Translations under genes and position numbers: made by a program | DNA from: Raillietiella orientalis | Taxonomy: Eukaryota | NCBI GenBank assembly: GCA_036172245.1 | Contig: JAYWIR010000150.1 | Span: forward strand, 1-61,509 | Direction: 5' to 3' | Length of the DNA stretch: 61,509 bases | Shown here: positions 11,006 through 61,509 of the stretch, in pieces | Layout of the letters: each line of letters opens with the position of its first letter | Position numbering within the stretch: position 1 is the first letter of the stretch | Notes under the pieces: model-generated | Database searches by the model: none | What the model was told of the DNA's origin: nothing | Seen by the model: the letters and a program-made list of their open reading frames with translations, nothing else

Positions 11006-11099
11006 TGCTGCTTGATCGACCACCACCACACACGAAGCCTACACCCAGGGACGGTTCCCGGCACGAGGAGCACCGAGGAAACACGTCCGCTCTAGCCGA

Positions 11100-28897: not shown

Positions 28898-30785
28898 ATC
28901 TCCCGGGCTTGATCTGCGGAGATCACGTGGATCTCCTACAGCAGCACCTGGTCCAAGGATGCCACGGTGGCGGCCACGTCACGCCTCTTGCCGTCGTAGC
29001 TTAGCCCGTTCACGTTCCAACAGGCGATCAGTAGACGACGGCGAGAGGCGATTCCCGGCATTATGGCTGGGAAAGTGGCGTCGCGGCACCTCCCGCGAGG
29101 CAGGTGTAGGAAAAGTCCATCGGTACGAGGACGGAGACCTCTTCAGGCGCCTGGGGAACCTGTTCGGCCTCCATCCTCACCATCCCTTCCGTGTCCGAGC
29201 GTGGAATTCTCTCGGGCGACGGGTCCCGGGAGTTTCCCACGCTAATGGCACCCTCGCTACCGGAAGCCATCTCTTCCCCTTCGTCGGGAGAGACGATCTT
29301 CCGGTGCATTGCGGACTTTCGTCCTGCCTTTTTGCGGGGTGCCGCGGAGATGGATGCTGTGTTTCCGGCCATAACCTCGGGGTCGGAAGTGGCCGACTCC
29401 TGAGGGGAAGCCGGACGTCTGACGGCATTCTTGCCAGCCTTGGGGGCAACCGGCTGCAACGAGGTAGCCAGCTCCTCCGCGGCGCGCTCGAAGGCGGCGT
29501 CATCGAGCGTGGGCTCGATGACTGACGCCGCCGCCTCGCACCCCTCTTTGTTGACTTTGTCAACGGAGGGTTGAGCAGGGGCACCAGCCAGTTCTTTAGC
29601 GCCGCATTCGTCGATGCTGGGAATCCGCTCTACAACGACGCAGCAGCTTTTAATTTTTTCGCGGCGCAGAGCGGTTTCGCTCCGTTTCGCCACGTTCTAT
29701 CTCTTCTTATGGGAGTTTTCCTTGAGGTCGACCTTCTGCCACCCTGGCTCTTGACCCTCGCCCTCGACCTTTTCCGCGTTTTTCGCCGAGGTCTGGGGGC
29801 TGGCCTTCGCCTTGGTGGCGGAAGTGACCTCCTTACCAGCAGCACGAGCTGTCAGCTTTTTCCTCTGTTTAGCCGCGCGCTTTCTCGCGTTTATCGCGGA
29901 CACGACGCGGACTGTGCTTTGGTGGCACACCAGACGGGTGTGCCTCGCTTGTTTGCATTGCTGGCACTGCACGCTCGAGCACCTCATTTTAAGGTGACCA
30001 AAGCTGCTGCAGCAGCCGCAAAACTTGGGTTTCCCCACGTACCACACGTCAACGGATTCACCGTTGACGGTGAGTATGTGGGGAACCTCACATCCCTGGC
30101 GAACCGTCACTCGCGCTGAACTTAGGCCGCCAAGCACCCCGTCGTAATCGACAAAAGGAGTAAGCTTTCCCCACAGCGCGTGGACAGTTGCGAATTTTTC
30201 CCATTCGCTCCGGACGGCCTCCTTAGTCATCCGGAACGTGATACCGGTCAGCTGAATGATCACCGACCGGTCTTCAGTAATTGGAAGAAGCCTCCGGCTG
30301 CCCATAATCACGGTGGTTCGCAGAAGTCTCTGCGCAAAAGTTGCCTCCTTGCAGATAACTTCCACAAATTGACCCCCGCTTCTGACGGACATAGCCAGAG
30401 GCTCCTCTTTCTGTACGCCGAGAACGCGCATCGCCTGTGAGAAGGCGCGCGCGTTCTCGGGAGAATATAGACCGCCTACCTTATATAGAAGGGATGGGTA
30501 ATACCCCTCCTCCAGGTAAGCGCGCATTTCCGCCATAGCCGCTGGCGTAGTTGTCGCAGCCACGGCGTTCCAAGCCCTGAGTAGGGCTGGGGGCGCATCC
30601 GTGCTGGCGGGAGCCTCCATTGATGCGGGAGCCCCCACCTCCATCTGCTCCGGGGACCAATAGGTCATCGCCCCCGGATCCTCACCGGTGGTGGTATCAG
30701 GCATTTCTGCCTAATCCTCCACCCACACCACGCACAAGCACCAACGGAAATGAAACTCAGGAGCAACGAAAAGACACGTCCGCTC
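28898..30785 (-). mobile_element. 5' part of a lineage-A LINE (5' end, ORF1 30704-29061 with one stop, start of APE)
   Basis: GAGCGGACGTGT at 30774-30785; CGCCSSFGHLKMRC knuckle; TAATG overlap at 29059-29063; cut by the 3' end of the element ending at 28897. Confidence 0.88.
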
Positions 30786-31456
30786 GACGCTCCGGAATCT
30801 CCAGGACTGGGACCTTTTTAAGGAATCGGTCCGGGAGTTCTGCGAGTAGTTCCCCCTGGATCGCCTGCCCCCCGGATTCGGCGAGGGTGCTTGCAGCCAT
30901 CGGGCCTATTTACAGGCTCGTGGGTACGAGAGAACCCCTAATGTCCGTAGCCTGGCCGAGTACCGCGCCGGGGCCGAACGCCAAGCCTGGCAATCCGGGT
31001 CGGCCAGCTTGCTGGACGACCAGGACCGGGAATGTTCATCCCCGGCGTCGGTACGGCATCTCGTGCGGAGTTTTTATTCCTCCCTTCACGCCAGGGAGTT
31101 CCCGGATCGGAACGCCTCTCGGCGCTTGCTTCCGGATGGTGCTCCGGCAATAGGGGAGAAGGAGATGGAAAGCCTGGACGAGCCTTTGACCACCGGCGAA
31201 ATTCTCGCCGGTATTAAAAGGCTCAAGAGGCGTAAAGCTCCAGGGGTAGACGGCTTGTCCACGGAGATCTTTCAGAGCTACGCGGAAGAGCAGGCACCCC
31301 TGCTGCTTAAGTTGATCAGGCTGATCCGAGACGAAGGCGATGTTTCCGCCTCGTTTCGTTCAGCCAGAGTGAGGCTTCTTCCGAAAGGGGGAGACCTCAG
31401 GGATTCAAAGAACTGGCGTCCCATCGCGATCGTGAATACGGACGCAAAGCTGATAG
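30786..31456 (+). pseudogene. ORF2 linker and RT N-terminal fragment
   Basis: TLRNLQDWDLFK ... KAPGVDG, WRPIAIVNTDAKLI. Confidence 0.85.
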
Positions 31457-33446
31457 TTGCCACCCGGTCACGCCGGGGCGTTTATTAAAACTTCTCTTTG
31501 ATTCGTGGTACGATGCCCCACTACGGCAAACTCAATGCAGACAGGCGTGACTCTCCTCGGTAGCGGAAGGGGGTGGGAGAAAAAACAAAAAGAAAAATAA
31601 AACATAAAAAACAAACAGATTTGGGAGGGTTGGGAAGGGATTACTGATCACTGGGAGGAGGGTCCATCCTTCGCAGGATGCCCTCGATGTCCTTCCGTAT
31701 AATTCCCAGGTGGGGCCATCTGGTCACAATCCGCAGGTAGCGGACTGCATGTACGACGGCATCCCTGTAGTGGCTCGGTCTTCTGACGTTGCTCCAGCAC
31801 GTCACAATCCCGCGTACGCAGCAAAGTGCAGCCAGGGTAGCGGCTTGACCCAGGGCATCATGCACGAACAGAAGCCGAAAAACGTCTCTGGGCTGGCTGC
31901 CCTCCTGGATCCGTAGGGAGGCACGAAGAGATTCCCACAGAGGTCGGAGGGCAGCACTATCAACAAGGAGGTGGGGGAAAGTTTCCCGTTCCCCACATTT
32001 GATGCAGGTAGGATCTACTCGACCCCTGGTCCAGTGGTGGCGGCGTGCGTTGCAGGGTAGACCCCAATGCAACAACAGAAGCGCCGACTCCTTCCACTTC
32101 AGGGGGAGGATCCTAGATCCAATTAATACCGGAGGCCACTTCAGGTCATCCGGCTGGATGCCGAGTAGCACGCCCCATCTCTGCAGTCCTCTCGGCTGTA
32201 CACTAGGGGTACTAACGTCCGCCAGTTCACCCGTGGACCAGCCGCTGATCAACTTCTCCTTGCCTGCGATGCGGCAGGAGACTTGCCACCTAGGCTTGCG
32301 GCTGCTGGAGAGCGCCCTCCTTAGAAAGGGCATCACCGTAACTAGGGGGGTTGTCTCTGCCCACGTGCTTTTCGCGGGACACTGGAGTATCTTCCGCAGA
32401 GTGCAGCGGGAATAGGCGTTGCGTCGCAGGCAGTTCCACATCTCTCCGTTCTTCTGGTTTATCTTTGCCCACGTGCCAGCTGTCTCCTCCAGCCATGCGG
32501 AGGAGTTGGCGGGGCTGCATTCTATCCAGCCGTTTTCCTTTGCCACGGTTGCCATGCGTCCCAGGAGGAGTGCGCATCTCTTGATCTTCGAGCCGCGGCA
32601 CAGAAGATGAGACGCGAGACCCTCCGTTCCGGATACACGGCTGGCAAAATGTCGGGCCGGAACGCACCATGGGGTGCTCCATAACTTCGCTGCGATGGCC
32701 AGGGTGTGCCATCGCAGCTGGATTTCTACTCTCTCCACCGTCAAGAGGCCCAGACCGCCATCCCGACGTCGAGCACACAAGTGCTTTTACTGGACTCGTG
32801 GCCTCCCTCTTCCCCAAAAGGCAATCCTCAGGAGGACCTTCGTCCTTTTCTTCATGTCTCTGGGGACGGGGCAAACAAAAAGCAGGGGGCGGAAGATGGG
32901 AGCCGCAAAGGAGTTTCACATTGCGGTTCGTTCCGAAAGCAGGAACTTGTCTTCCAAGAACGGGCCGATCGCCTTTTCCACTTTTTGGAGGCAGCCGGAC
33001 CATGCATCCGAAGGAAAGTAATCTCCAAACGGCACACCGAGATACTTCAAGCACCTCGCCGAGGGGATCCCCAAGCGGATCCAGTCCTGCTGCCCATCCC
33101 ACGTCGCACCGACTGGCACAACCGACGACTTCGCCTTGTTAACCTGCCGTCCGCTTTCGCGGTTAAGCAGGTCGAAGAAATCCTCGACTGCCTTTGCCGG
33201 GGTGGACATCGGCAACAAGAGGAGAAGATCGTCGGCGTACGCTGCTATTGCGGGCGTGCCGGGGCACGAGCTCGGCAAGGGGGCCAAGGTCACCCTATAC
33301 GCTCTCAGCACCAACTCAAAGTAGGTGCTAAAGAGCAGGAGGCTGAGGCTATCGCCCTGCCTTATGCCCCGCCGCACCGGCACGCCATACACCTTCTGTC
33401 CACTGAAACAGACGGTAGACATCGCATTCCGCCAGCAAGAGCGCAC
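31457..33446 (-). mobile_element. 3' part of a lineage-A LINE (RT core to 3' end); inverted copy of ~59468-61456
   Basis: AYADD, KYLG; 379-aa ORF 31641-32780 almost identical to 60133-61272; terminal motif 31457-31486. Confidence 0.92.
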
Positions 33447-34068
33447 GCCCTTTACGGCAGCGTCGACCGCCGGTTTCATGAAAAACGCGACGCCGCAGGT
33501 GTATCGGGAGCCGCATTGCCACATCAACCGTCCCCTTAGCCCAACGAACTTTGAAGCCTGGCGGCAGGAACCGTTGCATGGCTGGGCAAAGCACCAGGAT
33601 GTTTCCCTCCTGGAACTCCGTTGCGCTCTCCTCTCCCCGTACTGCACGGTGGATGAGGTGTGCTACAGCCAGGAGAAGTGGACCCGCCTGGCCGTCACCC
33701 CCCTCGAAGACGCACTGTCAGCCCTCAGGGCAAGAGATGACAGTTGCGAAGCGGCGAGATGGGAGGTCGCCTGCACCATCGCAGGAACAACGCGACCTAT
33801 TGGCGGCTGGAAGACTTGCGAGCTGGCGGACGCCGCCACGCCCCGCCACGTTCCGAAGGGACTCCTTCGGTGGAGCGAACACTTGAGTGTGCCCCTTGAA
33901 GAACTTGTGGTTCCTCCCTCGTGTCTGAACACTTCTGTGTTCCCCCTTCCGTGGAAGCAGGATGTGATTATGCTGGTGCATTGGGGTTTTCACTCCAACC
34001 AGCGCACGAACCTTGTTTCCGGGGGAGTCGTCTCCCCAAACTGTAAGCGGTGCGGGGAAGTGAAAACG
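33441..34068. mobile_element. Inverted copy of 57329-57957: short APE fragment (-, 33441-33535) plus RT C-terminal fragment (+, 33536-34068)
   Basis: ORF 33551-33886 matches 57511-57846 on the other strand (coordinate sum 91397). Confidence 0.88.
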
Positions 34069-34084: not shown

Positions 34085-35210
34085 GCCATTCCAACACCTG
34101 ACCGCTTTTGTCAATCTTTTCGGCATTCGTTGCCGGGGTGTCGGCTGAGGCCTGGACCACGAGAGTAAGGGGCACAGCTTGAGCGGCAGCCTTCGCCGCC
34201 AGTTTTTTCTGCAGCAGCCGCGCGCGTTTGTTTAGGTTCCTAGAGGAAATCACGCGCACAGCGGATTGTGAACACAATTGCTTCGTGTGGCCCATTGTCC
34301 CGCATACCAGGCACTGTACGTTGGGGCACCTCCTTTTGAGGTGTCCAGACGTGTTGCAGGAGCCACAGTATTTGGGCTTCCCCACGTACCAGAGGTCGAC
34401 GCTTTCTCCGCCGACCACCAGTTTGTGGTGAAGGGTAGAGCCCTCCCGAACGGTTACACGGGCAGCCCTGTGGCCGCACCGAACAGTGATATAGTCCTCG
34501 AAAGGACTAGGCTTGGTCCATACTGCATGGACCGTGCCTTCTTTTCCCAACGCGGCGCGTAACTGTTCTTTCCGCATCCGCGCGGTAACTCCTAAAAGGT
34601 GGACCACCATACTGTGGTGCGCCGTAACGGGAAGGAGCCTGCGTGTCCCTATAACCACGGGGGTTGCAAGCAGACGTTGGGTCAGATCTGCATGTTTGCA
34701 GATCACCTCTACGTACTGCCCCCCTCTACGAATGGTCATAGCGCAGAGCTCCTCTTCTTTAACATCGAGAGCGCGCATCCCCTTTGAAAAGGCGCGCGCA
34801 CTCTCAGCAGAATACAAATTTCGTACTTTGTAGAATAGTGATGCGTTATACTTTTCTTCCACATAGGCAGATAATTCCACCGCGGCTGCAGGCGATGGCG
34901 CGGACACGACAGCGCTCCACGCCCGCGCTGCAGCGGGGAACGGTTTTGTGGTGGTGGACGCCCTCAACTCCTTCGCCACTAAAACGACGTTGCCGCCGCC
35001 CCCTGGCACTCCACCTTCTCTAGAGGCGACGTTGCCGCTGTCACCTGGAACTCCATTTCTTTAGGAGGCGACGTTTCCACCGTCCCCTGACACGTACTGG
35101 TGGTCGCATCAGGCATTGCTGCCTGATCGACCACCACCACACAGGAAGCCTACACCTAGGTACGGTTCCCGGCACGAGGAGCACCGAGGAAACACGTTCT
35201 CTATAGACAA
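34085..35210 (-). pseudogene. 5' end and ORF1 fragment; diverged direct paralog of 9974-11099
   Basis: CGSCNTSGHLKRRC and CLVCGTMGHTKQLC; constant offset 24111 to 9974-11099. Confidence 0.88.
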
Positions 35211-37325
35211 CGTAAAGCATTCGAATGCGTCGACCAGAATCTCTTGCTGCAGCTTTTGGAACGCTTGGGCTTCTCTGCGTCATTATTGGCCTATCTGCGC
35301 TCTAGGTGACGCGATTCGCAAATCATTGTTACTTTTAGCAGGCATACCGTTCACGGCGTGCCGGTGCGACGTGGAATCCGGCAGGAAGACAGTCTGAGCC
35401 CCTTGCTCTTCAGTACCTACTTTGAGATGGTACTGAGAGCGTACAGGGAAACTCTGGCGCACCTGCCTCATGAATGCGCCGGAACGCCTTCGGTTTCAGC
35501 ATATGCGGACGATATTCTGCTGCTGCTCCCTATGTCCACCTTGGCTTCGGTGGTCGAGAAGTTCTTCGACCTGCTGAATCGAGGAACCGGGCTTACGGTT
35601 AAAAGAGCGAAGTCGTCCGTGATGCCAGATGGTGATGCGTGGGCAGGGAAGCAGGACTGGGTCCATTTGGAAATCCCCACGGTGAGGTACTTCAGGTACC
35701 TTGGTGTGCCTTTGGAGGACAACTCCCCTGCGGAAGCGTGGTCCGGTTGCCTTCAAAAAGTAGAGACGGCTGTCGGCCTGTTCCGAGGCGGCAGGTTTTT
35801 CTTGCCTGAACGGGCCGCGGTTTGGAACATGTTCTAAACTCCTCCCCTCCGTTCCCTGCTTTTTGTTTGTCCCCCCACAGAGAGGATCAAAACGCGGACA
35901 AAGGACCTCCTCCGTATCGCCCTTTGGGGCAACAGAAGGGCCCGAGTCCTCTTGAAGGACTTGTGGGCACCGCGTCGGGACGGTGGTCTCGGCCTCCTGA
36001 CATTAAGCGGCTGGAGCTGCAGCTCCAGTTCCGGATTTTGGCACTTGTGCCGGAGTTGTGGTGCACCTGTTGGTGCGTCCCTGCACGTCTGCTCCTTCAG
36101 CAAGCCACCGACAAGACGGGACTTACGTCGTTTCTTGCACTCTATCAAAGCCGCATCAACCGATGTGGGCTTCAGCTACGAGGGGGGCTGCGCTGGCAAG
36201 GAAACATCAAGGATGGATCACCTGTCTCCCCGTGAACGGTAGTGCCTGGTTGCAGGAAACCGTTCGTACGTAAGGACAGTTAGGCATGCAACCCTCCCAT
36301 CAGGAACGAAGGTTCCTGTTTGGGTGTTACAGAAGGTGCACGCTTTGTGAGATCGTGGAGTATCCTAAGAAGAGAGCGTGGTCAGGAAGAACCCCCCTCG
36401 CTGCTGCGCTGGACTCCCTAGTGGAACAACAGCACAGCGATGTTGCGGAGAAGTGAGAGGTTACAATAAAAATCTCCGGGAAGGAGAAGAAGCAGAGAGA
36501 GTGGAAGACGGGCCAGCTAACTGATGTTGCGACACCGAGTACGCCTCCTAATAGAATTCTGCGCTGGGGAGCGCTGCTGGATGTTCCGATTGAACATCTG
36601 AAGTGGCCCGCGATTCTTATGAACACTTCCATCCTCCCCCTAAAATGGCAACAATCGGCATTCCTGTTGCAGCACTGGGGACTGCCCTGCAACGCCCGTC
36701 GACACCACTGTACCTGGGGAGCGGTGGATCCTAATTGTGTGAGGTGCGGAGAACAGGAATCCTTCCCCCACCTCCTAGTGGATTGTGATGCCCTTCCGCC
36801 CCTTTGGTTCCGCTTTGCCGCGGCCATCGGTATCCCTTGCTGCAACCCCAGATACGCACTAAAATCCTTCTTCGTTGCCGACGCCCTGCAGCCAGCGTCC
36901 TCGATAGCAGCCTTGTGCTGCCTTCGTGGGATCGTCGCCGACTGGTCACGGCGACGGGAGGACCTAGCGATCAGGAAGCCATGCAGTGCGCCTCCGAATT
37001 CCTGAGGAGGGCGTCGCGATGGCCCCACCTGGATGTTTACAACAAACAAGAGCTTGCCAGCATCCTGAGGGGGATGATGCGGCCCCAGCAGCAACAGTGA
37101 TCCCTTCCCGTTCCCTCCCACCCTTTGTGTTTTTTTTTTTTTTTGTTTAGTTTTTTTGTTTTTCCCCTCTTCCCTGCTGCCTTGGTGAACCGTACCGGTC
37201 TAGAAACCGGTGAATTGGCAGGCGTTGTGGTTCTTAGCTTCTGGCTGGAGCATTGGAACTGCCATTAATAATTTGTTTACAAAGTTTATTTTTTTAATAA
37301 ACGACCCGGAGAAATCCGGGTGAAA
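35211..37325 (+). mobile_element. 3' part of a lineage-A LINE (RKAFE to 3' end); inverted counterpart of 5455-7570
   Basis: AYADD, RYLG, CVRCGEQESFPHLLVDC; terminal motif 37296-37325. Confidence 0.9.
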
Positions 37326-39828: not shown

Positions 39829-42782
39829 CCACCCGGAAACGCCGGGACGTTTATTAAAAACATTATGACGGTCAATACAGAACGTGGTACAAGGCCCCAC
39901 TGACGGCCACGCAATACCGGAACTGCCGGGACACCGGGACGCAGCCCGGTGTGGCTTTCCTCGGCAGTGGAGGGGGATGGGGGAGAAAACAAAAACAAAA
40001 TAAATAAGAAAAACAAACCACAAAAAAAAAAAAAAAAAAAAATTTGGAGGGCCGGTAACGGATCACAGAAAACTGCTGGTAGCGCCCATCCTTTGCTATA
40101 TGCCTTCTAGTTCCATTTTCAGTTTTCCTAGATGGAGCCATCGGAGAGCTCTCTGCAGGAAGCGAGAAGCATACTCGATGACGTCCCTAACGATGCCGCC
40201 TTCATCTTCGGCATCACTCCAGGCCGCCACGATACCACGAATGCAGCAAAGTGCTTTCAGCGCTGCAGCTGGACTGAGGGCGTCCCGCACGAAGACAAGA
40301 CTGAAGACACATCCAACATTGCCACCATCCGGTATCCGAAGGACCGTTTTCAGACGATCCCAAAGAATCCGGACGGCAGGGCATTCAACTAAGAGGTAGG
40401 GGAGCGTCTCCCGCTCCCCACACCTGGCACACGCAGGATTTACTCTTCCCCGCGTCCAGTGGGAGCGGCGCGCGTTGCAGGGTAGACACCAATGCAGCCA
40501 CAGAAGCGCCGATTCCCGCCACTTCAGGGGAAGAATCTTGGATCCAAGTAGAACTGGGGGCCACTTCAGGTCATCCAATCGAATGCCGAGCAGCTCGCCT
40601 CAGCTTCTAAATCCACGCAACAGGAGACTAGGGGTCGTTGCATCTGTCAACTCACCCATGGTCCAGGCGCTCATCATCGTCTCTCTGCATGCGAAACGGC
40701 AGCAGACTTGCCACCTTGGCTTCCGGCTTTCGTAAAGCGCCCTATGAACGAAGGACATCGCCGTAACAAGGGCTGTGCCTTCCGCCCACGTGCAACTCGT
40801 AGGAAATTCAAGAATTTCACGGAGAGTTCGGCGGGCGTAAAAGCCGACTCGCAGGCAGTTCATCCGTTCTTCGCACCTCTGGTTCTGCTTGGCCCAGGTG
40901 CCAGCAGTCTCTTCCATCCAAGCGAAGGAGTTGACAGGGCCTCAAACCATCCAGTCGTTCTCCATTGCCAGGGTTGTTATGCGGCCGAGCAGTAGCCTGC
41001 ATCTTCGAATCTTCCGGCCAGGGCACAGAAGAAACGATGCGAGTCCTTCGCAGCGGGACACACGCCTGGCCAGGAGGCGGGCAGGAATGTACCAAGCGGT
41101 GCTCCACATCTTCGCTGCGATGGCGAGGTTACGCCATAGCAGCTGGATTTCCACACGCTTCAGCGTCAGGATGCTGAGATCGCCGTCCCGACGCGGAGCG
41201 CACAAGTACTTCAAAGGGACTCGGGGCCTCCCCTTGCCCCAAAGAGCTATGCGCAGGAGGTCCTTCGTACGCTTTTTTGAGTCCACGGGGGCGGGGCAAA
41301 CAAAAAGCAAGGGGCGGAGGATGGAAGCCGCGAAGGCGTTCCAAACCGCGGCCCGTTCCGGCAAGTGAAACTTGCCTTCCAGGAACGGGTCGATCGCCGT
41401 CTCGACTTTTTGGAGGCAGCTGGACCACGCTTCCGCAGGAGAGAAGTCCCCCAACAGCACACCGAGGTACTTGATGCACCTCACCGTGAAGATCCCCAGA
41501 CGGACCCAGTCCTGCTGTCCTGCCCACGTCTCTCCAACTGCTAACACTGACGACTTTGCCCTGTTAACCTGTAATCCGGCCCCACGGCTAAGCAGGTCGA
41601 AGAAATCTCCGACCGCCTTCGCCGGGGTGGACATAGGTAAGAGGAGCAGAAGTTCATCGGCATACGCCGCTACGGCTGGCGTGCCGGGGCACGAGCTCGG
41701 CAAGGGGGCCAAAGTCACCCTGTACGCTCTCAGCACCAACTCAGCGTAGGTGCTAAAAAGCAGGGGGCTGAGGCTGTCGCCCTGCCTTTTGCCCCGCCGC
41801 ACCGGCACGCCATACGCCTTTTGTCCACTGAAAGTAATTGAGATTATCGCGTTCCGCCAGCAAGAGCGCAGGTTGGTAAGCAAGGAGGGTGGGAAGCCCA
41901 TGCGACCCAGGAGCTCCAAGAGGAGTTCCTGGTCAACACAGTGGAATGCCTTATGGAGGTCGACTGCGATCGCTAAGACCCCCTTCCCAGCATGAGGGTC
42001 CTTATTCTGTCTCACTGGCGGCCCCAAAGTAGGGTTGCAAAGTTTTCCTTTCCCTTCTTTCTTACTCCGCTGCGCGTGCATCCATGTGCTCGCGAAGAAG
42101 AGGTTGTCCTCCATACTTCGCCCGGGAACAGCGTAAGTCTGCTCCGGGATAATTATGGATTTGGACACCTGCCCCAATCGCGACGCCCACAGCCCGGCAA
42201 TCGACTTGGCGTCCGTGTTCACAAACGTGATCGGACGCCAGTTGCAAAGTTTCCTGAGGTCTCCTCCATTCGGGAGCAGCCTCACATTGGCTGACCGAAA
42301 CGAGGCGGGAACATCGCCTTCGTCTCGGATTCGCCTTGTCAACTCAAGCACTAGGGGGGACAGCTCTTCCGCGAAACTCTGAAAGAACTCCGCGGGCAAG
42401 CCGTCCTCACCTGGCGACTTACGCCTTTTAAGCCTTTTGATACCGGCGAGAATTTCGCCGATCGTGAAAGGCTCATCGATCCTTTCTCTCTCCTCCTCCC
42501 CTATCGCCACGGAACCACTCATGAGCAATTGCCGCGAGCCGTCTTGTTCGGGTGGTGTTTTGGCGTAAAGGGAGGAATAAAAACACCGCACGAGATTCCG
42601 TACCGCAGACGGGCCGAACGTTCCCGGCCCAGGTGGTCCAGCATGCTGGCTGACCCGGATTGCCAGGCTTGTCGCTCGGCTCCGGAGCGGTATTCGGCCA
42701 GGCGACGGACATTGGGGTTCCTCTCGTGACGACGCGCGTGCAAAAACGCGCGTTCGTTGCGAGTCCCTTCGTCGAATCCCCG
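39827..42782 (-). mobile_element. 3' part of a lineage-A LINE; inverted copy of 1-2952
   Basis: 549-aa RT ORF 40942-42591 (YADE); terminal motif 39827-39855. Confidence 0.93.
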
Positions 42783-45222
42783 CTGTGGAGAGCGCACGTG
42801 CTTTTCCTGCGCTCCGCCTGCGTGGCCAAGCGAGTGTTTTTTCTTCTTAAGTGATTTGTGCCTGCACATCGTCGGTGTCCGATGGCAGCGTTGCCAGAGG
42901 ACACCGCGATGGAAGTCGGCGTGATGGAGGCTTGTTCGTCCCCACATCCTACTGGATCAGGGGCATCCGCCCCAGAATCGTCCCCGGCGACGCCGAGGTC
43001 CTGGAAAGCCATGGTAGACGCACCTAGCGTGGAAGCCATGGCCGAGATGGAAGCCTACAAGAAAGCAGGGTATAAACCCTCGTTAGTCTACATGGTAGGC
43101 AACCTTTTCGATGGGCGAACTGCACGCGCCTTTACGAAGGCGCTGCAGGACGCCAATATTTTTGAAAAAGATCTCGACGGCCTCTGCGTCCTCAGCGGCG
43201 GGCAGCGGGTCGACGTGGTATGCAAGGATATCACCTTGGCCCGACGCCTGATCACCGACCCGCTGATCGTTGATGGTCGCAAGATCTTGCCGATAACGAT
43301 GGACCGCTCAGTGGTGGTCCATCTCACTGGGATCTCAAGTCGCATGACGAGGTCAGCGGTTCGAGAACAGCTTCAAAACCACGGAGAAGTGCACGCGTTG
43401 TGGCCGAAGTCCACGATTTTCCAAGGCTACAATAGCCTTTTCGGAGGTCAAGCTGCGGCGCGTATCACGGTAAAAGAGGGTGGTGCGCTTCCCCATAAGC
43501 TGGAGGTCTGCCAAGAAGCGGTGGACCTCTGGTACGTGGGAAAACGCCAATTTTGTGGCTACTGCAATGCAGTAGGGCATCTACGAAAAAGGTGCCCGAA
43601 CATTGTGTGCCACCTATGCGGCGAAAAGGGTCACGTTCGGCGCGTGTGCCCCAAGCGCCCCACCCCGGTGCCCCCTGCCGCCAAAAAGGCGCAGGGAAAA
43701 CGTGGAAAGCTGGTAGAAAGACCAGCTCGCGAAAATGGCCGTTCCCAACTGCCAGCCTCCCTTCCTCCCGTACAGACGTCGGAGGAAATAGCTCCCGTGG
43801 ACGCGGGAATGGAGGAGGGTTGGCAGCTGGTTCAGGCCAGAAAAGAGAAAAAAAAGAAAGCGATGCCAGAAGAAAAGACGGAGGAGAAAACCGCCGGCAA
43901 CAAGAAAAAAGCCGCGCCGCTTTCAAAAAAAAAATCCGCAAATGCTCGGTGGGACTGGAACGCTTAGCCGTTCCTGCCGAGTCCGCCCGCGGCAATGTTC
44001 GCGGAACAGCTGATGCGGACGCGATGAATACTCGCGTGGACGAGCCCAATCTACGTGTAGAGGGTGAGACGCGAGTCTCGGGCGGCGACAGCCAGGACGC
44101 CGCGCTCGATAAAGTGGCGGAGGAGCCCGCGGCAACGTTCGCCGTCAACGATGACGCCGCGCTCGATAAGGTCGCGGAGCAGTCCGAGGCAACGGTCGCC
44201 GCTGGCGAAGACGCGGCCTTCGAGAAAGCGGCGGAGGAGCTCGCAGCAACGCTCGCCGAGCGCGAAACCCCGTCGCGCAAGGGCGTACGCAGGTCGGCTC
44301 CGACGAAGAAGGCCCCCGCAGGTGAGTGCGACCTGGGGGCCGGAAGCGGATCCTCCTCCTCGGAGGCATCCCCCAGGAAGTCGGGACGCAAGTCCCAGAA
44401 ACCCAGGAGGCGCCTCCCCTCCACCAGCGAGGAGGAGAAACCGGAAGGAAGCGGCAGCGTGGGAATCCCGGAGGGGGAAATCCTACGCTCGGAAGCCGTC
44501 GAGCCGGCCACCCCCATGGAGGAGGGTGAGCAGGGGGGCAAAGTCCTGCCTGCAGTCGCCGAGCCTGAACAGCCCGCCCCCATGGAGGAGGGCCAACAGG
44601 TAGGCGCGACCCCACCTAAGGGTGACCCGCTCGACGCGCCGTTACCCATGGAGGAGGAGGAAAAGGTGCCTTCAGTACCTGTCCCTCCTCCCCCTCCACC
44701 TAGCGTTCCGCCGCAACAGGTGGCGGACGCCGCATCGCCATCTTCCCAGGAATAACACCTGGGCTCGCCAGTCGCCGTCGGATTCGCGCCGCCTGTTGGA
44801 ACGTCAACGGGCTGCGCGACTACGGTAACAGCCGAGATACGGCCGACACCCTGCGTGAGCTCGACCTGGCCCTGCTGCATGAGATCCACCTGATCACCGC
44901 GGCAGACGCCCAGGAGATCGAGATGATCGCGGGGGGTCGGCTGTATTTGCGGTGCGGCCTCCGCAACTCCTGCGGGGTCGCGTTCTTCGTCAAGCCGGCC
45001 ATCGACGCGGCAGTGAAGGGCGCGCGCTTCGATGACGACGGTCGGGTCGGTAAGCTGATTCTCAGCTGGTCCGACCCGATCGAATTGATCGTCACGAATG
45101 TGTACGCCCCCAGCGGTAAACAGGGATACAGCGACCGTACCAGGCTGCTGGATTCCCTGAAGCGCGACTGGCTGGCGGACACGAACGTGCGGAAGGCTCA
45201 CCTGATAGCGGGAGATTTCAAT
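42783..45222 (+). mobile_element. 5' part of a lineage-A LINE: ORF1 42882-44755 (frameshift in an A-run near 43930) and APE to GDFN
   Basis: GAGCGCACGTG 5' motif near 42790; CGYCNAVGHLRKRC, CHLCGEKGHVRRVC; CWNVNG, YAP, AGDFN. Confidence 0.9.
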
Positions 45223-45301
45223 CGAGTGCGGACGTGTTTTTCTTCGCTCTCGTCTCCGTGCTTTCATCCGCTTCATCTTGGCGTCGTACATTTTGACGAC
45301 G

Positions 45302-52120: not shown

Positions 52121-54484
52121 TTACCACCCAGGTACGCCCGGGGCGTCTATTTATAAAAAACTCTACAATCGCGGTACCAGGCTTCGCTCACGGCCTTATG
52201 CACGGGACCCACCGAGACGCCGGGACGCAGCCCGGCGTGGCACTCCCCGGCAGCGAAAGGGGATAGGGAAAAACAAAAAAAACAAAAAACGCAAACAAAC
52301 AAATGTGTTTGGGGGGGCAGGGAAGGGATCACTGTTCGCTGAGAGGAGGGCCCATCCGTTGAAGGAAGCCCTCGAGATCCATCCGTATATTCCCCAGTTG
52401 GGGCCATCCAGTAGCTCTCCGCAAGAAGCGTTGGGCATATGGGATGACATCCCTCGCGTGTTGACCCACTTTTTCCTTGTTGGTGTCGCTCCATGCCGCC
52501 ACGATACCTCGGACGCAGCACAAGGCTGCAAGGGCTGCGGCTGGATGCAGGGCGTCCTTCACGAAGAGGGGCCGAAGAACGTCTTTAAGGGAACTGGCCG
52601 CAGGTAGACCGAGAATCGTCCCAAACTGTTGCCAAAGGGAACGCATGGCAGCACAGTCCACAATAAGGTAAGAGAGCGATTCCTAATCTCCGCACCTGAC
52701 ACACACGAAATCCACAACTCCTCTTGTCCAGTGAGAGCGGCGTGCGTTGCTTGGTAAACCCCAATGCAACAACAGCAACGCCGACTCTTTCCACTTAACA
52801 GGCAGGATCCTGGATTCCTGAAGAAGCGGGGGCCACTTCAGCACATCCATAGTGATAACCAGCTGCTCGCACCGTCTTCTTAGTCCTCGCGGCTGGACGC
52901 TCGGTGTCGTGGCGTCGGCCTGTTCTCCTGTTGTCCAGCCTCTGATCAACTTCTCGCGTCCCTCGATGCAGCAGGGGACTTGCCACCTTGGCGTTCGGCT
53001 GCTGTAAAGTGCCCTCTTCAGGAAGGGCAGCGCCGTAGCTAGGCAGGTCGTCTCCGCCCACGTGCATCTTGCTGGACTCTCCAGGAGATTCCGCAGCGTG
53101 CAGCGGGCGAAGGGGCTACATCGGAGACGATGCCACGTTCCGTAGCTCCTCTGGTTAACCGCTGCCCACGTTCCGATGTTCTCCTCCAGCCAGGCGGAAG
53201 AGTTGGCGGGGCAGCAAACAATCCAGCTGTTCTCCTTGGCCAATGTTGCCAGGTGCCCGAGCAGTAGGCCACATCTTCGCATCTTCCGGCCACGGCTCAG
53301 AAGAAAAGAGGCGAGTCCATCGCACCGGGACTCACCACTGTCCAGGAGGCGAGCCGGAGGGCACCAAGGGGTGCTCCACATCTTCGCTGCGATGGCGACG
53401 GTTCGCCACCGCAACTGCTTCTCCACGAGCTCCAGCGTCAGGAGGCCAAGACCGCCGTCCCGACGCGGAGCGCACAAGTCCTTCAGAGGGACTCAGGGCC
53501 TCCCCTTGCCCCAAAGGGCGATACGGAGGAGGTCCTTTGTCCTCTTCTTCGATTCCACGGTGGGGGGGCAAACAAACAGCAAGGGGCGGAGGATGGGGGC
53601 CGCGAAGGCGTTCCAAACCGCGGCCCGTTCCGGCAAGTGAAACTTGCCTTCCAGGAACGGGCCGATCGCCGTCTCGACTTTTTGGAGGCAGCTGGACCAC
53701 GCTTCCGCAGGGGAGTAGTCCCCCAACGGCACACCAAGCTACTTGAAGCACCTCGCCGTGGGGATCCCCAGACGGACCCAGTCCTGCTGCAATGCCCACG
53801 CCGCACCTATTGGCACAACCGACGACTTCGCCCTGTTAACCTGCAGTCCGGTCCCGCGGCTGAGCTGATCGAAGAAGTCTCCGACCGCCTTTGCCGGGGT
53901 GGACATTGGTAACAAGAGCAGAAGATCGTCGGCGTACGCTGCTACGGCGGGCGTGCCGGGGCACGAGCTCGGCAACGGGGCCAGAGTCACCCTGTACGAT
54001 CTCAGCACAAACTCAAAGTAGGTGCTGAAGTGCAGAAAGCTGAGACTATCTTCCTGCCTTATGTCCCGCCGCAACTGCACGCAATGCACCTTGTGACCGC
54101 TGAAAGAGACGGTATTTATTGCATTCCGCAAGCAAGAGCACAGGTAGGAAATCAGGGAGGGTGGGAAGCCCATGCGACTTAGGAGCTCCAAGAGGAGGTC
54201 CTGGTCTACATATTCGAACGCCTTGTGGAGGTCGACTGCCAGCGCTAGGGCCCCCTTTCTTGCCCGTGGTTTCCTTGCCAGCCCGGCTGGCGGCCCCAAT
54301 GTGGGGTTGCCGACTTTCCCTATCCCTTTCTTCTCTCTTCTCTGCAGGTGCACCCATGTGCTTGCGAAGAAGAGGTTGGCATCCATACTTCGACCGGGAA
54401 CAGCATAAGTCTGCTCCTGGCTAATTACGGATTCTGCCACCTGCCTTAGACGCGAAGCCCATAGCCCTGCTATTAACTTGGCGT
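52121..54484 (-). mobile_element. 3' part of a lineage-A LINE (from AKLIAGLW to 3' end), decayed
   Basis: DLHKAFE, AYADD, CVRCGD; variant terminal motif (AATAGA plus hairpin) at 52121-52151. Confidence 0.9.
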
Positions 54485-54497
54485 GCGGACGTGTTTT
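54485..54497 (+). promoter_or_regulatory. Conserved 5'-terminal motif (GA)GCGGACGTGT, candidate internal promoter element; representative of 6 occurrences
   Basis: Also 11081-11092(-), 30774-30785(-), ~35192-35203(-, degenerate), ~42790-42801(+), ~45226-45237(+); always within ~10 nt of an element 5' junction. Confidence 0.6.
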
Positions 54498-54572
54498 TGT
54501 AGCGCTCCTCCGTGCCTGGTGTAAAGCGGTTGATTTCGATTGTGTTTGTGTGTGAAGCATCTGCGGTGTCCA

Positions 54573-56593
54573 ATGGCAGAAATGCCTGAGGACACCGCGA
54601 CTGATATAGGAGGGGGAGAGGCTTGCTCCTCTCCCCAACCCACAAAGGTGGGGGCAACTGCCCCCACGGAGGCGACGGCAGCCGCACCCCTGGAAAAGGG
54701 GGCAACCGCCGCCTCGGAAGTGAGGGCAAAGGCACCCTTGAAAAAGGGAACAAAAGCCCCGCTGGAACAGGGTGCAACCGCCTTCTTGAAAAAGGGGACA
54801 ACCGCAACCCTGCAAAAGGGCGCAACCGCCTCCTTGAAAAAGGGGGCACCTGCACCCTCGAAAGCGTCTTCGGCATCGCCGAAGACCTGGAGTTCACTGG
54901 CTGCAGCCCCATCTCCTGCAGCCCTCTCCGAGCAGAAAGCCTACCTGGAACAGGGATGCAAGCCGTCCTTGATATACAAGGTAGGCAATCTGTTTATCGG
55001 GAATACCGCTTGCAACTTCGAAAGGGAGTTGCAGCGGTTGAATGTAAAAGAGGAAGTCCAGGAAGGTCTTTCCGTGTTGAGTGGTGGTCAACGGGTGGAG
55101 GTGACTTGCAGAAATGCAAGCCTTGCTAGACACCTCCTAAATACGCCAATCACACTAGAAGGACGAAAGGTTTTCCCATTAACGGAGGATCGCTCCGTGG
55201 TGACGCACCTCACGGGAGTCACCCTCCGCATGTCAAAAGCCGACGTGCAAAGGGAACTCGGAAAATATGGAACGGTTCACGCGCTATGGAAAAAGCCCAA
55301 CGTCTTCCAGAGTTACGGAAGGCTGTTTAGTGGCATGGCTGTTGCGCGTGTAACCGTCCACGAAAACGGTGGGCTACCCCACAAACTAGACGTCGGCAAC
55401 AAGACAGTCGACGTCTGGTACGTGGGCAAGCCCAAGTACTGTGGACACTGTGATGCCACAGGGCATCTGAAAAAGCGGTGCCCCCACATCCAGTGTTTCC
55501 ACTGTGGAGAGAAGGGCCACCTCCGCAAAGTGTGCCCGAAACGCGAACCCCCGGCTCCCGCTGCCTTGAAAAAGGCCAAAGGGAAACGCGCGGGGGCTAC
55601 GGAAAAGTTTGCGAAGGCACCCGCGAGACAGAACCCACAGCCGGAGCCCGAGCCCGTGCAGCAAACGTTGGTCGTGGAATCTACCAACGACGCTGAAAAG
55701 AGCGAAGGCTGGCAGAAGGCGAAGCAGAAAGCGAAGAAAACAAAGAAAACCGAAGGGTCGACAGCGGAACCCGCGACGTCTCCTTTAAATAGGAGACAAC
55801 GCCGCGCGTACATCCGCGAATGTTCGGTCGCTTTGGAGCGTGTGGGGGTACCCGGAACCGCCACCGGGAGAGATATCCCCCGCGTAGACGCCGACGATAA
55901 CGCGATCACGGAAGGCGAACCCTCTGTGCAAACAGAGGTTGAACCGCGCGACGCGCTCGCCTCGATCGACGAGGCCGCCTTCCAGCAGGCGGCGGAAGAG
56001 CTCGCGGCCGAACTCGCCGACCGTGCGAACGGCGCGCAAAAGAGCTTGCGAAGGCCGGCCGCGACCAGGGCACCTCCGACAGGTGACCACGACCCGGATG
56101 CCGGAAGTGCGTCCTCCTCCACGGAGGCGCCTCCGAAGAAGACTGGACGGGAGTCCAAGAATTCCAAGAGGCGCATCCTGACGAGGAGCGAGGCGGACGC
56201 ACCGGCAGCCGAGGGGGAAGCCGGCAGCGTGGGAACGGAGGGAGGAATTTTCCCACCCTCCGCCACCGAGCAGCCGACCACCCCATGGAGGAGGGGGAGC
56301 AGGTAGGGCATTGCCTCCACCTTCCACCGGTGGAGCCTGCAGAAAAGATGGTCATGGAAGAGGGGGAGAAGACAGCTGAGAACCGCTCCCCTCTGCCGTC
56401 CAACGCAGCCGAGGAATCGGCCCCCATGGAAGAGGGGAAGCAGGTGCGTGAAGCATGCTCCCTTCAACCGTTGCGGTCCGCCGAGGAATCGCCCCCCATG
56501 GAGGTGGGAGAACCGCTGGGCGGTGCCCCCATGCCTCCATCCGTCCCACCCGACCAGGTGGCGGGAGCCCAATTGCCACTTTCCTGAAAATAA
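54573..56593 (+). pseudogene. LINE ORF1 with two CCHC knuckles; frameshift and stop near the C-terminus
   Basis: CGHCDATGHLKKRC, CFHCGEKGHLRKVC; DEAAFQQAAEELAA; frame change near 56280. Confidence 0.87.
54684..54851 (+). repeat. Degenerate 24-bp coding tandem repeat (8 aa, ~APLEKGAT) in the ORF1 N-terminus
   Basis: APLEKGAT, APLKKGTK, APLEQGAT, AFLKKGTT, ATLQKGAT, ASLKKGAP. Confidence 0.85.
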
Positions 56594-59500
56594 CACCTGG
56601 GCTCGCCTGTCGCCGTCGATTACGCGTGGCCTGCTGGAACGTGAACGGGCTGCGCGACGACGGCAACAGACGGGAAACGGCCGCCACCCTGCGTGACTTC
56701 GACCTGGCACTCCTGCAGGAGATCCACGTGATCACCGCGGAGAACGCCCAGGAGATCGAAAGGATCGCAGGGGGACGGTTGATTGTCACCCGGGTGCGCC
56801 GGGGCGTTTATTATAAACTATCCGGGAACAGGGTTCCCGGACAAAGGGGAAAACAAGAGACCAAAGGGGTGGGATCCCCGACACGCAGGTCGGCATGCCG
56901 AAAGTCCGGAACGGGAGGGAAGGGACCACAAACACACTACTATATAAAAAAATAAAAGAAAAATGTGGAGGGCAGGGGACAGGGGTCTTTGGTAAATCCG
57001 TTCCTTCCTTTTAAAACCGGCGATGGATGCCGGCGATCTCTCTCCTTACGCCCTGCGGCAGATGGGCCCATTGGGCAGCCGACGACATGTTTGCGCTGGC
57101 TAATCCGGTGGGCTGACGAAGGATGGCCAGCTTCTCCAACTCTCGGTGGGCCTTGTCGATGGCGCGGGTGCAACACACGGTTGCAACGACAGCACCCAAT
57201 GACAGGCCGCCTGGTGTGAAGAAGCGGCGCATCAACTCCCTCGCGGTGTCCCCCTGGTGCAGGAGAGCTGAGGCCAGCCTCCGCCAGAGTCCTAGAAGGG
57301 CACTGCAGTCCAGGAGCAGGTGCGGGAGCGTTTCCACTTCCCCGCACCGCTTACAGTTTGGGGAGACGACTCCCCCGGAAACAAGGTTCGTGCGCTGGTT
57401 GGAGTGAAAACCCCAATGCACCAGCATAATCACATCCTGCTTCCACGGAAGGGGGAACACAGAAGTGTTCAGACACGAGGGAGGAACCACAAGTTCTTCA
57501 AGGGGCACACTCAAGTGTTCGCTCCACCGAAGGAGTCCCTTCGGAACGTGGCGGGGCGTGGCGGCGTCCGCCAGCTCGCAAGTCTTCCAGCCGCCAATAG
57601 GTCGCGTTGTTCCTGCGATGGTGCAGGCGACCTCCCATCTCGCCGGTTCGCAACTGTCATCTCTTGCCCTGAGGGCTGACAGCGCGTCTTCGAGGGGGAT
57701 GACGGGCAGGCGGGTCCACTTCTCCTGGCTGTTGCACACCTCATCCACCGTGCAGTACGGGGAGAGGTGAGCGCAACGGAGTTCCAGGAGGGAAACATCC
57801 TGGTGCTTTGCCCAGCCATGCAACGGTTCCTGCCGCCAGGCTTCAAAGTTCGTTGGGCTACGGGGACGGTTGATGTGGCAATGCGGCTCCCGATACACCT
57901 GCGGCGTCGCGTTTTTCATGAAACCGGCGGTCGACGCTGCCGTAAAGGGCGTGCGCTTCGACGAAGCCGGTCGTGTCGGCCAGCTGATTCTCAGGTGGTC
58001 CGACACGATTGACCTCGTCGTAGCAAACGTATACGCCCCGAGCGGTTATAACAGGTAACGGGAACGCCCGGCGTTCCTGGAAAGCCTGGAGCACGAATGG
58101 CTGGTGGAAACGAACGTGCGCGTGGCTCACCTGATAGCGGGAGACTTTAATCTCCGCCTGCTATCAGGTGAGCCACACGCACAAGAACGGACGGCTAACG
58201 AGTTGTGCGCCGCCATGCGCACGCGGAACTTGTTAGGGGATCTTTCGGAAATGGTCAGCAGCATCGATCACGTCTTCCTAGATGTCCACCGCTGCTCCCG
58301 GGTCGGCAAACGGGGGAAAGTTGCGTCGGAACTGTCTGACCATTACAGATTAATATTCGAAATGTGCCCGCGCGAAAAGGGACTTCCATCCAGGGCGTGG
58401 CGGTTGCCTGGGGACTGGACGCGCCTCTCAGAAGCGAAAGAACACCTTCGCAAATCCCTGAGAGGCGTCACCCTCCGCAATCTCGATGATTGGGACCTTT
58501 TTAAGGCCTCGGTCCGCGAGTTTTGCGAGGAGTTCCCCTTGCACCTTCTGCCCCGGGGATTTGAGAAGGGGATCCGCAACGATCGAGCGTACTTGTATGC
58601 CCGTCGTTACGCGAGGACCCCCCAATGTCCGTCGCCTGGCAGAGTACCGAGCCGGGGCCGAACGTCAAGCCTGGCAATCCGGATCGGCCAGCTTCCTGGA
58701 CGACTAGGGAAGGGAGCACTCGGCTCCGGCTAGAATACGGCACCTCGTGCGGCGTTATTATTCCCTTCTTTCCGGCAGGGCACCCCTGGTCCAAGAAGTT
58801 CCTCGGCGCTTGCTTTTGAACGGGGCCCCGGCAATAGGGGAGGAGGAGAAGGAAAGCCTCGACGAGCCTTTTACCACCGGCGAAATTATCGCCGGTATCA
58901 AAAGGCTCAAGAGGCGGAAAGCACCAGGGGAGGACGGCCTGCCTGCGGAGTTTTTTTAATGCTTCGCGGCAGAGTTAGCATCCCTGGTGCTTGAGTTGAC
59001 AAGGCTGATCCGAGATGAAGGCGATGTACCCGCCTGGTTTCGGTCAGCCAGAGTGAGGCTCCTTCCGAAAGGAGGAGACCTCAGGAAACTCAGGAACTGG
59101 CGTCCGATCACAATTGTGAACACGGACGCCAAGTTGATCGCCGGACTGTGGGCTTCGCGTCTTGGGCAGGTGGCCAATTTCATAATTAGCCCGGAGCAGA
59201 ATTACGCTGTTCCCGGGCGAAGTATGGAGGCCAACCTCCTCTTCGCAAGCACATGGTTTCATGTTCAGTGTAGTAAAGAAAAGGAAGAGGGAAGGATTGG
59301 CAGCCCCGCTTTGGGGGCGTCAGCCGGGCAGGGACAGGACTTCCAGGTGGGGAAGGGAGCCTTAGCGATCGCAGTCGATCTGCATAAAGCGTTTGACTGC
59401 GTGGAGCAGGATCTCCTGCTGGAGCTCCTGGGACGCATGGGCTTCCCTCCTTCCCTACTGACCCACCTGCGCTCTTGCTGACGCAGCGCGCTGATCAATA

Positions 59501-61272
59501 TCTCTTTCAGAGGTCAAATGGCGTACGGCGTGCCGGTACGGAGGGGCATACAGCAGGGCCACAGCCTCAGTCCCGTGCTCTTTAGCACCTACTTTAAGTT
59601 GGTGCTTAGAGCGTATAGGGTGACCTTGGCCCCCTTGCCGAGCTCGTGCCCCGGCACGCCCGCCGTAGCAGCGTACGCCGACGATCTTCTCCTCTTGTTG
59701 CCGATGTCCACCCCGGCAAAGGCAGTCGAGGATTTCTTCGACCTGCTTAACCGCGAAAGCGGACGGCAGGTTAACAAGGCGAAGTCGTCGGTGGTGCCAG
59801 TCGGTGCGACGTGGGATGGGCAGCAGGACTGGATCCGCTTGGGGATCCCCTCGGCGAGGTGCTTGAAGTATCTCGGTGTGCCGTTTGGAGATTACTTTCC
59901 TTCGGATGCATGGTCCGGCTGCCTCCAAAAAGTGGAAAAGGCGATCGGCCCGTTCTTGGAAGACAAGTTCCTGCTTTCGGAACGAACCGCAATGTGGAAC
60001 TCCTTTGCGGCTCCCATCTTCCGCCCCCTGCTTTTTGTTTGCCCCGTCCCCAGAGACATGAAGAAAAGGACGAAGGTCCTCCTGAGGATTGCCTTTTGGG
60101 GAAGAGGGAGGCCACGAGTCCAGTGAAAGCACTTGTGTGCTCCACGTCGGGATGGCGGTCTGGGCCTCTTGACGGTGGAGAGAGTAGAAATCCAGCTGCG
60201 ATGGCACACCCTGGCCATCGCAGCGAAGTTATGGAGCACCCCATGGTGCGTTCCGGCCCGACATTTTGCCAGCCGTGTATCCGGAACGGAGGGTCTCGCG
60301 TCTCATCTTCTGTGCCGCGGCTCGAAGATCAAGAGATGCGCACTCCTCCTGGGACGCATGGCAACCGTGGCAAAGGAAAACGGCTGGATAGAATGCAGCC
60401 CCGCCAACTCCTCCGCATGGCTGGAGGAGACAGCTGGCACGTGGGCAAAGATAAACCAGAAGAACGGAGAGATGTGGAACTGCCTGCGACGCAACGCCTA
60501 TTCCCGCTGCACTCTGCGGAAGATACTCCAGTGTCCCGCGAAAAGCACGTGGGCAGAGACAACCCCCCTAGTTACGGTGATGCCCTTTCTAAGGAGGGCG
60601 CTCTCCAGCAGCCGCAAGCCTAGGTGGCAAGTCTCCTGCCGCATCGCAGGCAAGGAGAAGTTGATCAGCGGCTGGTCCACGGGTGAACTGGCGGACGTTA
60701 GTACCCCTAGTGTACAGCCGAGAGGACTGCAGAGATGGGGCGTGCTACTCGGCATCCAGCCGGATGACCTGAAGTGGCCTCCGGTATTAATTGGATCTAG
60801 GATCCTCCCCCTGAAGTGGAAGGAGTCGGCGCTTCTGTTGTTGCATTGGGGTCTACCCTGCAACGCACGCCGCCACCACTGGACCAGGGGTCGAGTAGAT
60901 CCTACCTGCATCAAATGTGGGGAACGGGAAACTTTCCCCCACCTCCTTGTTGATAGTGCTGCCCTCCGACCTCTGTGGGAATCTCTTCGTGCCTCCCTAC
61001 GGATCCAGGAGGGCAGCCAGCCCAGAGACGTTTTTCGGCTTCTGTTCGTGCATGATGCCCTGGGTCAAGCCGCTACCCTGGCTGCACTTTGCTGCGTACG
61101 CGGGATTGTGACGTGCTGGAGCAACGTCAGAAGACCGAGCCACTACAGGGATGCCGTCGTACATGCAGTCCGCTACCTGCGGATTGTGACCAGATGGCCC
61201 CACCTGGGAATTATACGGAAGGACATCGAGGGCATCCTGCGAAGGATGGACCCTCCTCCCAGTGATCAGTAA
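56593..61272 (+). pseudogene. LINE ORF2, interrupted by insertion 56784-57861 and several stops/frameshifts
   Basis: CWNVNG, LQEIH, GDFN, SDH, KAPGEDG, DLHKAFD, YADD, KYLG, CIKCGERETFPHLL. Confidence 0.92.
56784..57861 (-). mobile_element. 5'-truncated (~1.08 kb) LINE insertion with a perfect 13-bp TSD
   Basis: ggggacggttgat at 56771-56783 and 57862-57874; encodes the ORF2 C-terminus (CKRCGEVETLPHLLLDC); terminal motif 56783-56812. Confidence 0.93.
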
Positions 61273-61456
61273 TCCCTTCCCAACCCTCCCAAATCTGTTT
61301 GTTTTTTATGTTTTATTTTTCTTTTTGTTTTTTCTCCCACCCCCTTCCGCTACCGAGGAGAGTCACGCCTGTCTGCATTGAGTTTGCCGTAGTGGGGCAT
61401 CGTACCACGAATCAAAGAGAAGTTTTAATAAACGCCCCGGCGTGACCGGGTGGCAA

Positions 61457-61509
61457 CTATCAGCTTTGCGTCCGTATTCACGATCGCGATGGGACGCCAG
61501 TTCTTTGAA
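61457..61509 (-). pseudogene. RT fragment (NWRPIAIVNTDAKLI) running off the window
   Basis: Reverse complement of 31404-31456. Confidence 0.85.

Follow-up and report, generated by a model that had tools for sequence, protein, structure and literature searches.

Silent mismatches between the two target copies flanking a LINE nested in the reverse transcriptase gene of a related LINE

Among the long interspersed nuclear elements (LINEs) of the Tx1 clade, some insert into transposons (Tx1 in Tx1D, Tx1-Mar in Mariner-N4_AMi, and Tx1-9_AMi in Harbinger) and others, Tx1-8_Crp and Tx1-4_AMi, target long terminal repeat (LTR) elements (PMC4494074). The R1 elements of arthropod 28S rDNA, like the elements described here, insert at specific sites with an apurinic endonuclease (APE)-type machinery, a 14-bp duplication, and precise 3' junctions; they occasionally carry over donor flanks at either end (PMC2718515). 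The L1 LINEs Zepp and ZeppL of green algae form clusters by nested insertion into existing copies, as is also seen here (PMC8226300). In maize centromere 10 (CEN10), recombination has produced chimeras in which a complete element is joined to flanks from different insertions (PMC4806543). Here, we analyse a stretch of 61,509 nucleotides of Raillietiella orientalis DNA (GenBank assembly GCA_036172245.1, contig JAYWIR010000150.1, positions 1 to 61,509, hereafter the window), which consists almost wholly of LINEs that are 60-85% identical and nested within each other. We designate them by letters and focus on element F, which sits antisense within the reverse transcriptase (RT) gene of a related LINE and whose two target copies do not match. 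This mismatch is a by-product of a nest of LINEs that appear to be site-preferring.

The copies flanking F, ctattaacttggcgt (54470-54484) and ctatcagctttgcgt (61457-61471), are identical at 12 of 15 bases, and the identity ends there, with no extension on either side. On the minus strand, both fall within the motif NWRPI.IVNTDAKLIAGLW of related LINEs (RT motif 1). The three differences (GCC/GCA and TTA/CTG) are all silent in D-A-K-L-I. The first-pass annotation of this DNA had reported both the count and its synonymous character from the same coordinates, and our analysis bears it out with two refinements. In the left copy, the Asp codon is without its first base; the host strand has a C at 54485, which means that the g given for this codon in the annotation was supplied, not read. 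The final GT of this copy could equally belong to the 5' end of F, since the six intact 5' ends in the window show GA, GT, or TA ahead of a GCGGACG-like core. The stagger is 14 bp at other insertion sites in the window, which makes 11/14 the better count for the pair. Four copies reading DAKLI are present in the window, and all six pairs among them are separated by 2-3 silent bases. The two target copies of F are thus as distant from one another as coding lineages are, and the data support the view that they differ in the way such lineages do.

Neutral decay should not respect codons, as the annotation had argued, and the numbers agree. We simulated decay with the substitution spectrum of the window's own duplicated A1/A2 copies, and three neutral hits were all silent in 0.9-1.2% of the simulations. 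The probability of at least three differences in 15 bases is 0.009-0.036 at a pairwise decay of 3-5%, a range estimated from the number of stops in F. The product of the two gives a joint probability of about 1e-4 to 4e-4. Between A1 and A2 themselves, 23 of 86 differences lie in silent codons, hence decay is mostly non-silent. Neutral decay is very unlikely to be the source of the mismatch. All the other explanations that survive imply that F has hit the same codon in more than one host.

The explanation we favour, with moderate confidence, is that two F insertions occurred at the same codon of different host copies and were later joined by recombination. Family F would be a site-preferring L1/Tx1-like LINE that nicks the RT gene of its relatives in antisense at D-A-K-L-I with a stagger of about 14 bp. 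It would have inserted there twice, in two hosts (H1 on the left and H2 on the right) whose coding lineages or sub-lineages had diverged. The two F copies could then have undergone a non-reciprocal homologous exchange, with its start at some point in 54485-57329, that placed the block running from the nested element N to H2 of one F behind the 5' part of the other. The outcome would be the arrangement H1-F-H2, plus a duplicate junction at 31457. Each half of the apparent target-site duplication (TSD) would represent the codons of its own host, and the silent differences would stem from the hosts' protein-coding divergence. We infer that there were two insertions at DAKLI, that H1 is unlike H2, and that the breakpoint lies in this interval. 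The case of maize CEN10, where mismatched TSDs mark chimeric retrotransposons, supports the explanation by two insertions, although some mismatched TSDs there are assembly errors (PMC4806543).

Insertion at fixed sites is evident among the relatives of F. A scan for end motifs yielded 15 candidates for 3' ends and 20 for 5' ends, of which 9 and 6 were retained once loose matches had been discarded. The nine 3' ends correspond to six distinct junctions, all antisense to the ORF2 (second open reading frame) of the host. Five of the six 5' ends adjoin an antisense host and one (45228) is in sense. Three unrelated insertions (A, H1, and M) occupy the PxGFG site in three hosts. At the RKAF site, one and the same base is the starting point of B, in host K, and of B', in a B-type host. 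The elements and hosts at these pairs of insertions differ by 9-35% yet their frames are largely open, which suggests that they are separate insertions and not old copies. With insertion sites read by hand, the probability of three site coincidences among nine sites is 1.2e-5 over 3500 nt and 0.003 over 500 nt. Independent hits at one nucleotide, with the 14-bp offset, show sequence-specific insertion in the relatives of F, presumably specified by the endonuclease. A further, weak indication comes from a related sequencing run: at the TLRNL site, which is a 5' junction in the window, one low-depth contig shows a 3' end.

Exchange between elements is also apparent. B1 and B2 share the same 3' junction in host C; 13 differences separate them over 1325 bases, followed by 90 over 791. 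This is a recombinant within an element, and it implies the existence of sub-lineages 89% identical. A tract of 113 bp is common to H1 and A2, with a single mismatch. F can be compared with F2, a partial copy elsewhere in the window: outside a divergent patch, they differ at 14 of 1165 positions upstream, and none of the 1366 positions between 60144 and the end of the window differs (Fisher P=2e-5). The switches at 59481-59607 and at about 60144 are both real, but they lie inside the block common to F and F2. These share the 5' junction of N, which places the whole N-to-H2 block at one locus of origin, so that the switch at 60144 cannot by itself make a chimera. We have ruled it out as the breakpoint for this reason; it is a later refresh or an assembly effect. 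The annotation's proposal of recombination within the insert is supported as regards exchange in these elements (the patch in F, and B1/B2) and not as regards this particular switch.

Mismatched duplications are frequent in the window, as a comparison of other elements with F shows. Element B is a parallel case (11/14): two of its changes are silent, and the third, Ala/Ser, looks like decay of host C. The outer element T' has 11/13, with one silent and one non-silent change in the poorly conserved ORF1 (first open reading frame). The inner T and the truncated N are exact (both 13/13).

The identity of the hosts is less clear-cut. H1 reads on as AGLWASRL to a full 3' end and is 79-86% identical to F and A in the RT; H2 ends in NWRPIAIVNTDAKLI. 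The two overlap in the target copy only. Third-position base use and the GC content at third positions do not separate them, and no sequence bridging them was found in the metagenome, the viral contigs, the protein relatives, or the listed joints of the related run. Given this, and the trees described below, different host subfamilies for H1 and H2 are neither shown nor refuted.

Several observations weigh against two insertions joined by recombination. When the flanks (H1, 52121-54484; H2, 30784-31456) were assigned to lineages, both grouped as sister to A in all four trees (68% support upstream; 80, 83, and 100% downstream), with similar branch lengths. Both use ATA-G at the nick, which F and A do not. 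Together, these features would fit a single lineage or sister sub-lineages. The annotation's view that the flanks come from two host copies therefore has the lineage-like distance of the target copies on its side and these trees against it. At DAKLI, family F has one 5' and one 3' junction in the window, and no independent insertion was found there. The second 3' junction, at 31457, was ruled out as one because F2 is a copy of F with the same H2 and N junctions. The site-specific targeting put forward in the annotation is accordingly backed by the PxGFG (three insertions) and RKAF (two) sites, but not by a second independent hit at DAKLI in the window. No breakpoint is visible in 54485-57329, where F has no second copy to be compared with. 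The stops are unevenly distributed (0 in the 5' part of F vs 5 in the rest), though not significantly so (P=0.08), and each part has one of the two frameshifts. Finally, three of the four full-length insertions have a mismatched duplication and the truncated N an exact one.

This last pattern is also predicted if the 5' copy was brought in from a donor, which is the strongest of the alternatives, albeit an unlikely one in our judgement. It involves one insertion, with H1 and H2 being the same host copy. The RNA of F would start upstream, within the target of the donor, and the end of the cDNA, with the donor's 14 bases, would anneal to the nicked top strand of the recipient. The heteroduplex would then be resolved to the donor version; site-specific targeting would still be required. 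Melanogaster-type R1 transcripts indeed take upstream target sequence into new sites, but the ancestral type of R1, which has 14-bp duplications, carries few or no upstream bases (PMC2718515). In the window, each of the six intact 5' ends is closely followed by a GGACG-like core, and an initiator-like A is found 27 nt upstream, in host DNA, in J and B' and weakly in B1. The core would correspond to a downstream promoter element (DPE) and the upstream A to an initiator. The failure of the trees to separate H1 from H2 is in line with this alternative, as is the exact duplication of the truncated insertion next to three mismatched full-length ones. The predicted +1 of F is, however, a C, one base off the nearest A, and M and P fail too. 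F also lacks the 7-nt spacer found in B, B', and M, and joins its host by a microhomology of 1-2 bases. Moreover, the full-length insertion of T is exact (13/13). The annotation had overlooked this recombination-free route, in which the target copy travels on the donor RNA as in R1 (PMC2718515).

A broader version of this idea is a little more doubtful still: the window might hold a guild of LINEs that use coding motifs of their kin as both landing and start site, with the 14-base copy of the donor, carried on the RNA, able to overwrite the codons of the recipient at each full-length insertion. If true, transcription would start antisense within the target, the silent mismatches would be a trace of the integration reaction, and the antisense rule would be explained.

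The second option of the annotation, gene conversion limited to one junction, invokes another F at DAKLI in a different host, which would have replaced the end of F together with a short flank; it also requires a second insertion at the codon, with both outer flanks belonging to one host copy. We regard it as improbable. Lineages that are about 80% identical do show conversion tracts of 110-130 bp in the window, and tracts without differences cover the 3' junctions F-H2 and B-C. Yet the boundary of a tract cannot be placed without lineage references, and the identical 3' tract of F brought no new bases, since the sequence that shares it is a copy of the same junction. We give an equally low probability to an assembly join or a chimeric read between near-identical copies of F, in which case the two junctions would be genuine nonetheless and would lie at one codon. 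The identical tract (0/1366) does reach the last base of the window, and the related run has 0.10 of the words, most of its contigs being less than 90% alike to the window. Against this, F and F2 are about 1.2% apart upstream and differ by the deletion while having N in common, so that a join at 60144 alone would not change the flank, and B, the other mismatched case, is located far from the ends of the window.

Slightly less probable again is read-through at the 3' end, whereby an RNA with about 14 bases of the donor's downstream target would have provided the right-hand copy. Some R1 insertions take up to 14 nt of downstream target (PMC2718515), and the 3' ends in the window are precise and without poly(A). 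The AATAAA 24 nt before the end of F and the terminal AA suggest, however, that the RNA is processed at the end of the element, and ordinary priming leaves the annealed bases recipient-derived. As for a genuine duplication that decayed by point mutation and is silent by luck, the 5 stops and 2 frameshifts of F indicate that it is not new and the sample is of only three mismatches, but the joint probability and the mostly non-silent A1/A2 differences given above make this highly improbable.

Table 1. Position of element F, its hosts, and the other junctions discussed in the text.
Feature	Position	Strand	Remarks
Element F (full-length LINE of APE-RT type, no poly(A) tail)	54485..61456	+	5' end possibly at 54483 (GT common with host)
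ORF1 of F, zinc knuckle PF00098	54573..56584	+	Free of stops; a single frameshift near 56280
ORF2 of F (endonuclease, RT, weak zf-RVT)	56587..61272	+	Interrupted by N; 5 stops, one frameshift
5'-side target copy	54470..54484	-	Host codons (D)-A-K-L-I; 14-bp core 54470-54483
3'-side target copy	61457..61471	-	Host codons D-A-K-L-I; 14-bp core 61457-61470
Left host H1	52121..54484	-	ORF2 from AKLI to 3' end; own 3' end antisense in host G at PxGFG site
Right host H2	61457..61509	-	53-bp stub cut by window end; identical to 31404-31456
Longer copy of H2	30784..31456	+	Runs from linker to DAKLI; identity with F and A about 78%
F2	31457..34068	-	Inverted, internally deleted copy of F; same H2 junction and same N 5' junction
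N, 5'-truncated relative nested antisense in endonuclease of F	56784..57861	-	Exact 13/13 duplication (56771-56783, 57862-57874)
Patch in F from another lineage	59481..59607	+	29 differences vs F2 in 127 bp; F is the odd copy
Tract identical to F2/H2	60144..61509	+	0/1366 differ; recent conversion or assembly join
Full-length element B, parallel case (5454 to about 11099, hosts C and K)	5440..11113	-	11/14 at RKAF codons (5440-5453, 11100-11113)
5' junction of B'	35201..35224	-	Same RKAF base in another, B-type host (identity with K 68%); an insertion independent of B
3' junction of A in host D, PxGFG site	2952..2968	+	Same base as H1 in G (52120/52121)
5' junction of M in host A2, PxGFG site	42777..42792	+	14 bp from A and H1 3' junctions

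The domains of F and its relatives (Table 1) indicate the class of these elements. The CCHC zinc knuckle PF00098 is above the cut-off in ORF1, and RVT_1 was found in F and relatives. Exo_endo_phos is above the cut-off in the relative E1 and in T, and weak in a fragment of F (E 0.13); zf-RVT is below the cut-off in F (E 0.02), and the atlas neighbours carry both RVT_1 and zf-RVT. The best matches of the RT of E1 among solved structures are to human L1 ORF2p (E 2e-17), ahead of R2 (1e-11 and weaker). With an ORF2 carrying APE and RT, an RT closer to L1 than to R2, and a CCHC ORF1, F can be assigned to the L1/Tx1 group of non-LTR retrotransposons. The protein searches returned no named Tx1 or R1 reference sequences. 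Unlike a canonical L1, F has no poly(A) tail, and in all nine cases the 3' end comes about 9 nt past the first base of GGGTG and carries no run of As. The AATAAA lies 24 nt before the end of F and most 3' ends finish in AA, which suggests RNA processing at the end of the element. With 5 stops and 2 frameshifts, F is dead.

Some features of the ends were recorded in addition. F and E1, which are about 62% identical overall, have an identical 3' terminus of 26 nt (61427-61452 and 28868-28893) that contains AATAAA and CCCGG..CCGGG; all six distinct 3' ends are similar in this respect. A hairpin at CCCGG..CCGGG was rejected because it was better than shuffled sequences in just one of the six ends. 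Of the intact 5' ends, that of E2 (45226-45228) alone is in sense to the adjoining element; it comes directly after the GDFN codons of the endonuclease of M and represents either a deletion or an exception to the antisense rule. Two E-type elements (28897/28898 and 56783/56784) end about 24 nt apart after the QEIH codons in the endonuclease of different hosts, which is either a looser or a double site. Twin priming was ruled out for the joints, since the partners are different lineages and there are tail-to-tail joints at the same sites.

Other rearrangements were seen within the window. F2 is without 57958-59467 of F, with a microhomology of 6 bp at the joint (33440-33445). The inverted duplicate 1-7570/35211-42778 has a divergence of about 3%, 1.5%, 0% (5001-5800), and then 11%; the tract without differences covers the 3' junction of B, as that of F covers the 3' junction of F. 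T belongs to a distant LINE family (RT about 30% identical to P0001-type proteins) and forms a head-to-tail pair, antisense in the ORF1 of E1 (13023-24313). A 13-bp target is present there three times (13/13 and 11/13), and the sequence at about 16200-17200 is a divergent patch. This pair is either a tandem re-insertion or an unequal exchange.

We also searched outside the window. The protein searches gave two close relatives from metagenomes, P0001 and P0034, neither of which bridges H1 and H2; one further search gave none, and the other protein relatives are 21-38% identical. When the 3'-end motif was sought in metagenomes, 8 loci (L001-L008) were obtained, none similar to the window by tblastx or blastn; seven of them have one common flanking context, unrelated to the window. 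A scan of viral contigs with the H1 protein gave no relative. The related sequencing run was compared with 41510-61509 at 80% likeness. One of its contigs crosses DAKLI uninterrupted (joint 54470-59139). Among the joints listed (15 of 37), no contig joins H2 to H1 and none has another junction of F at DAKLI. A contig of this run continues E2 at 51062 by 37 bases plus the shared terminal motif; the window lost the 3' end of E2 there.

If it arose by recombination, the mismatch alone is an ordinary event in a nest of repeats. Unless it arose by decay, it is of wider interest as indirect evidence that these LINEs home to conserved coding motifs of their relatives. As the targets are polymorphic, the junctions can reveal which strand and which parent supplied each target copy, information that is hidden in elements specific to rDNA. 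In addition, a set of related endonucleases, each with its own site of 14-bp stagger, would be useful for studying the evolution of specificity. In the literature listings and abstract openings screened, which cover few subscription journals or Repbase reports, we found no report of LINEs aimed at fixed codons of kin LINEs.

Compared with known systems, F may work like target-specific Tx1 elements and R1, and it builds nests like Zepp. With the target-specific Tx1 elements, the group of F shares the APE-RT organisation, a CCHC ORF1, and a preference for fixed positions and orientation in a mobile element; the Tx1 targets listed there are DNA transposons, LTR elements, snRNA genes, and microsatellites, whereas here they are coding motifs of kin LINEs (PMC4494074). 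The Zepp and ZeppL clusters are tandem arrays, mostly of the 3' ends of one family (PMC8226300); unlike them, the window contains several lineages, 60-85% identical, inserted antisense at fixed codons of each other's ORF2. The chimeras of maize CEN10 involve LTR elements at unrelated sites (PMC4806543), whereas the flanks of F are homologous and in register, so that repeated insertion at one codon is needed. Finally, the target of R1 is a homogenised rRNA gene, in which donor bases are invisible, whereas the hosts described here differ by 20-35%, so that swaps or carry-over appear as silent mismatches (PMC2718515).

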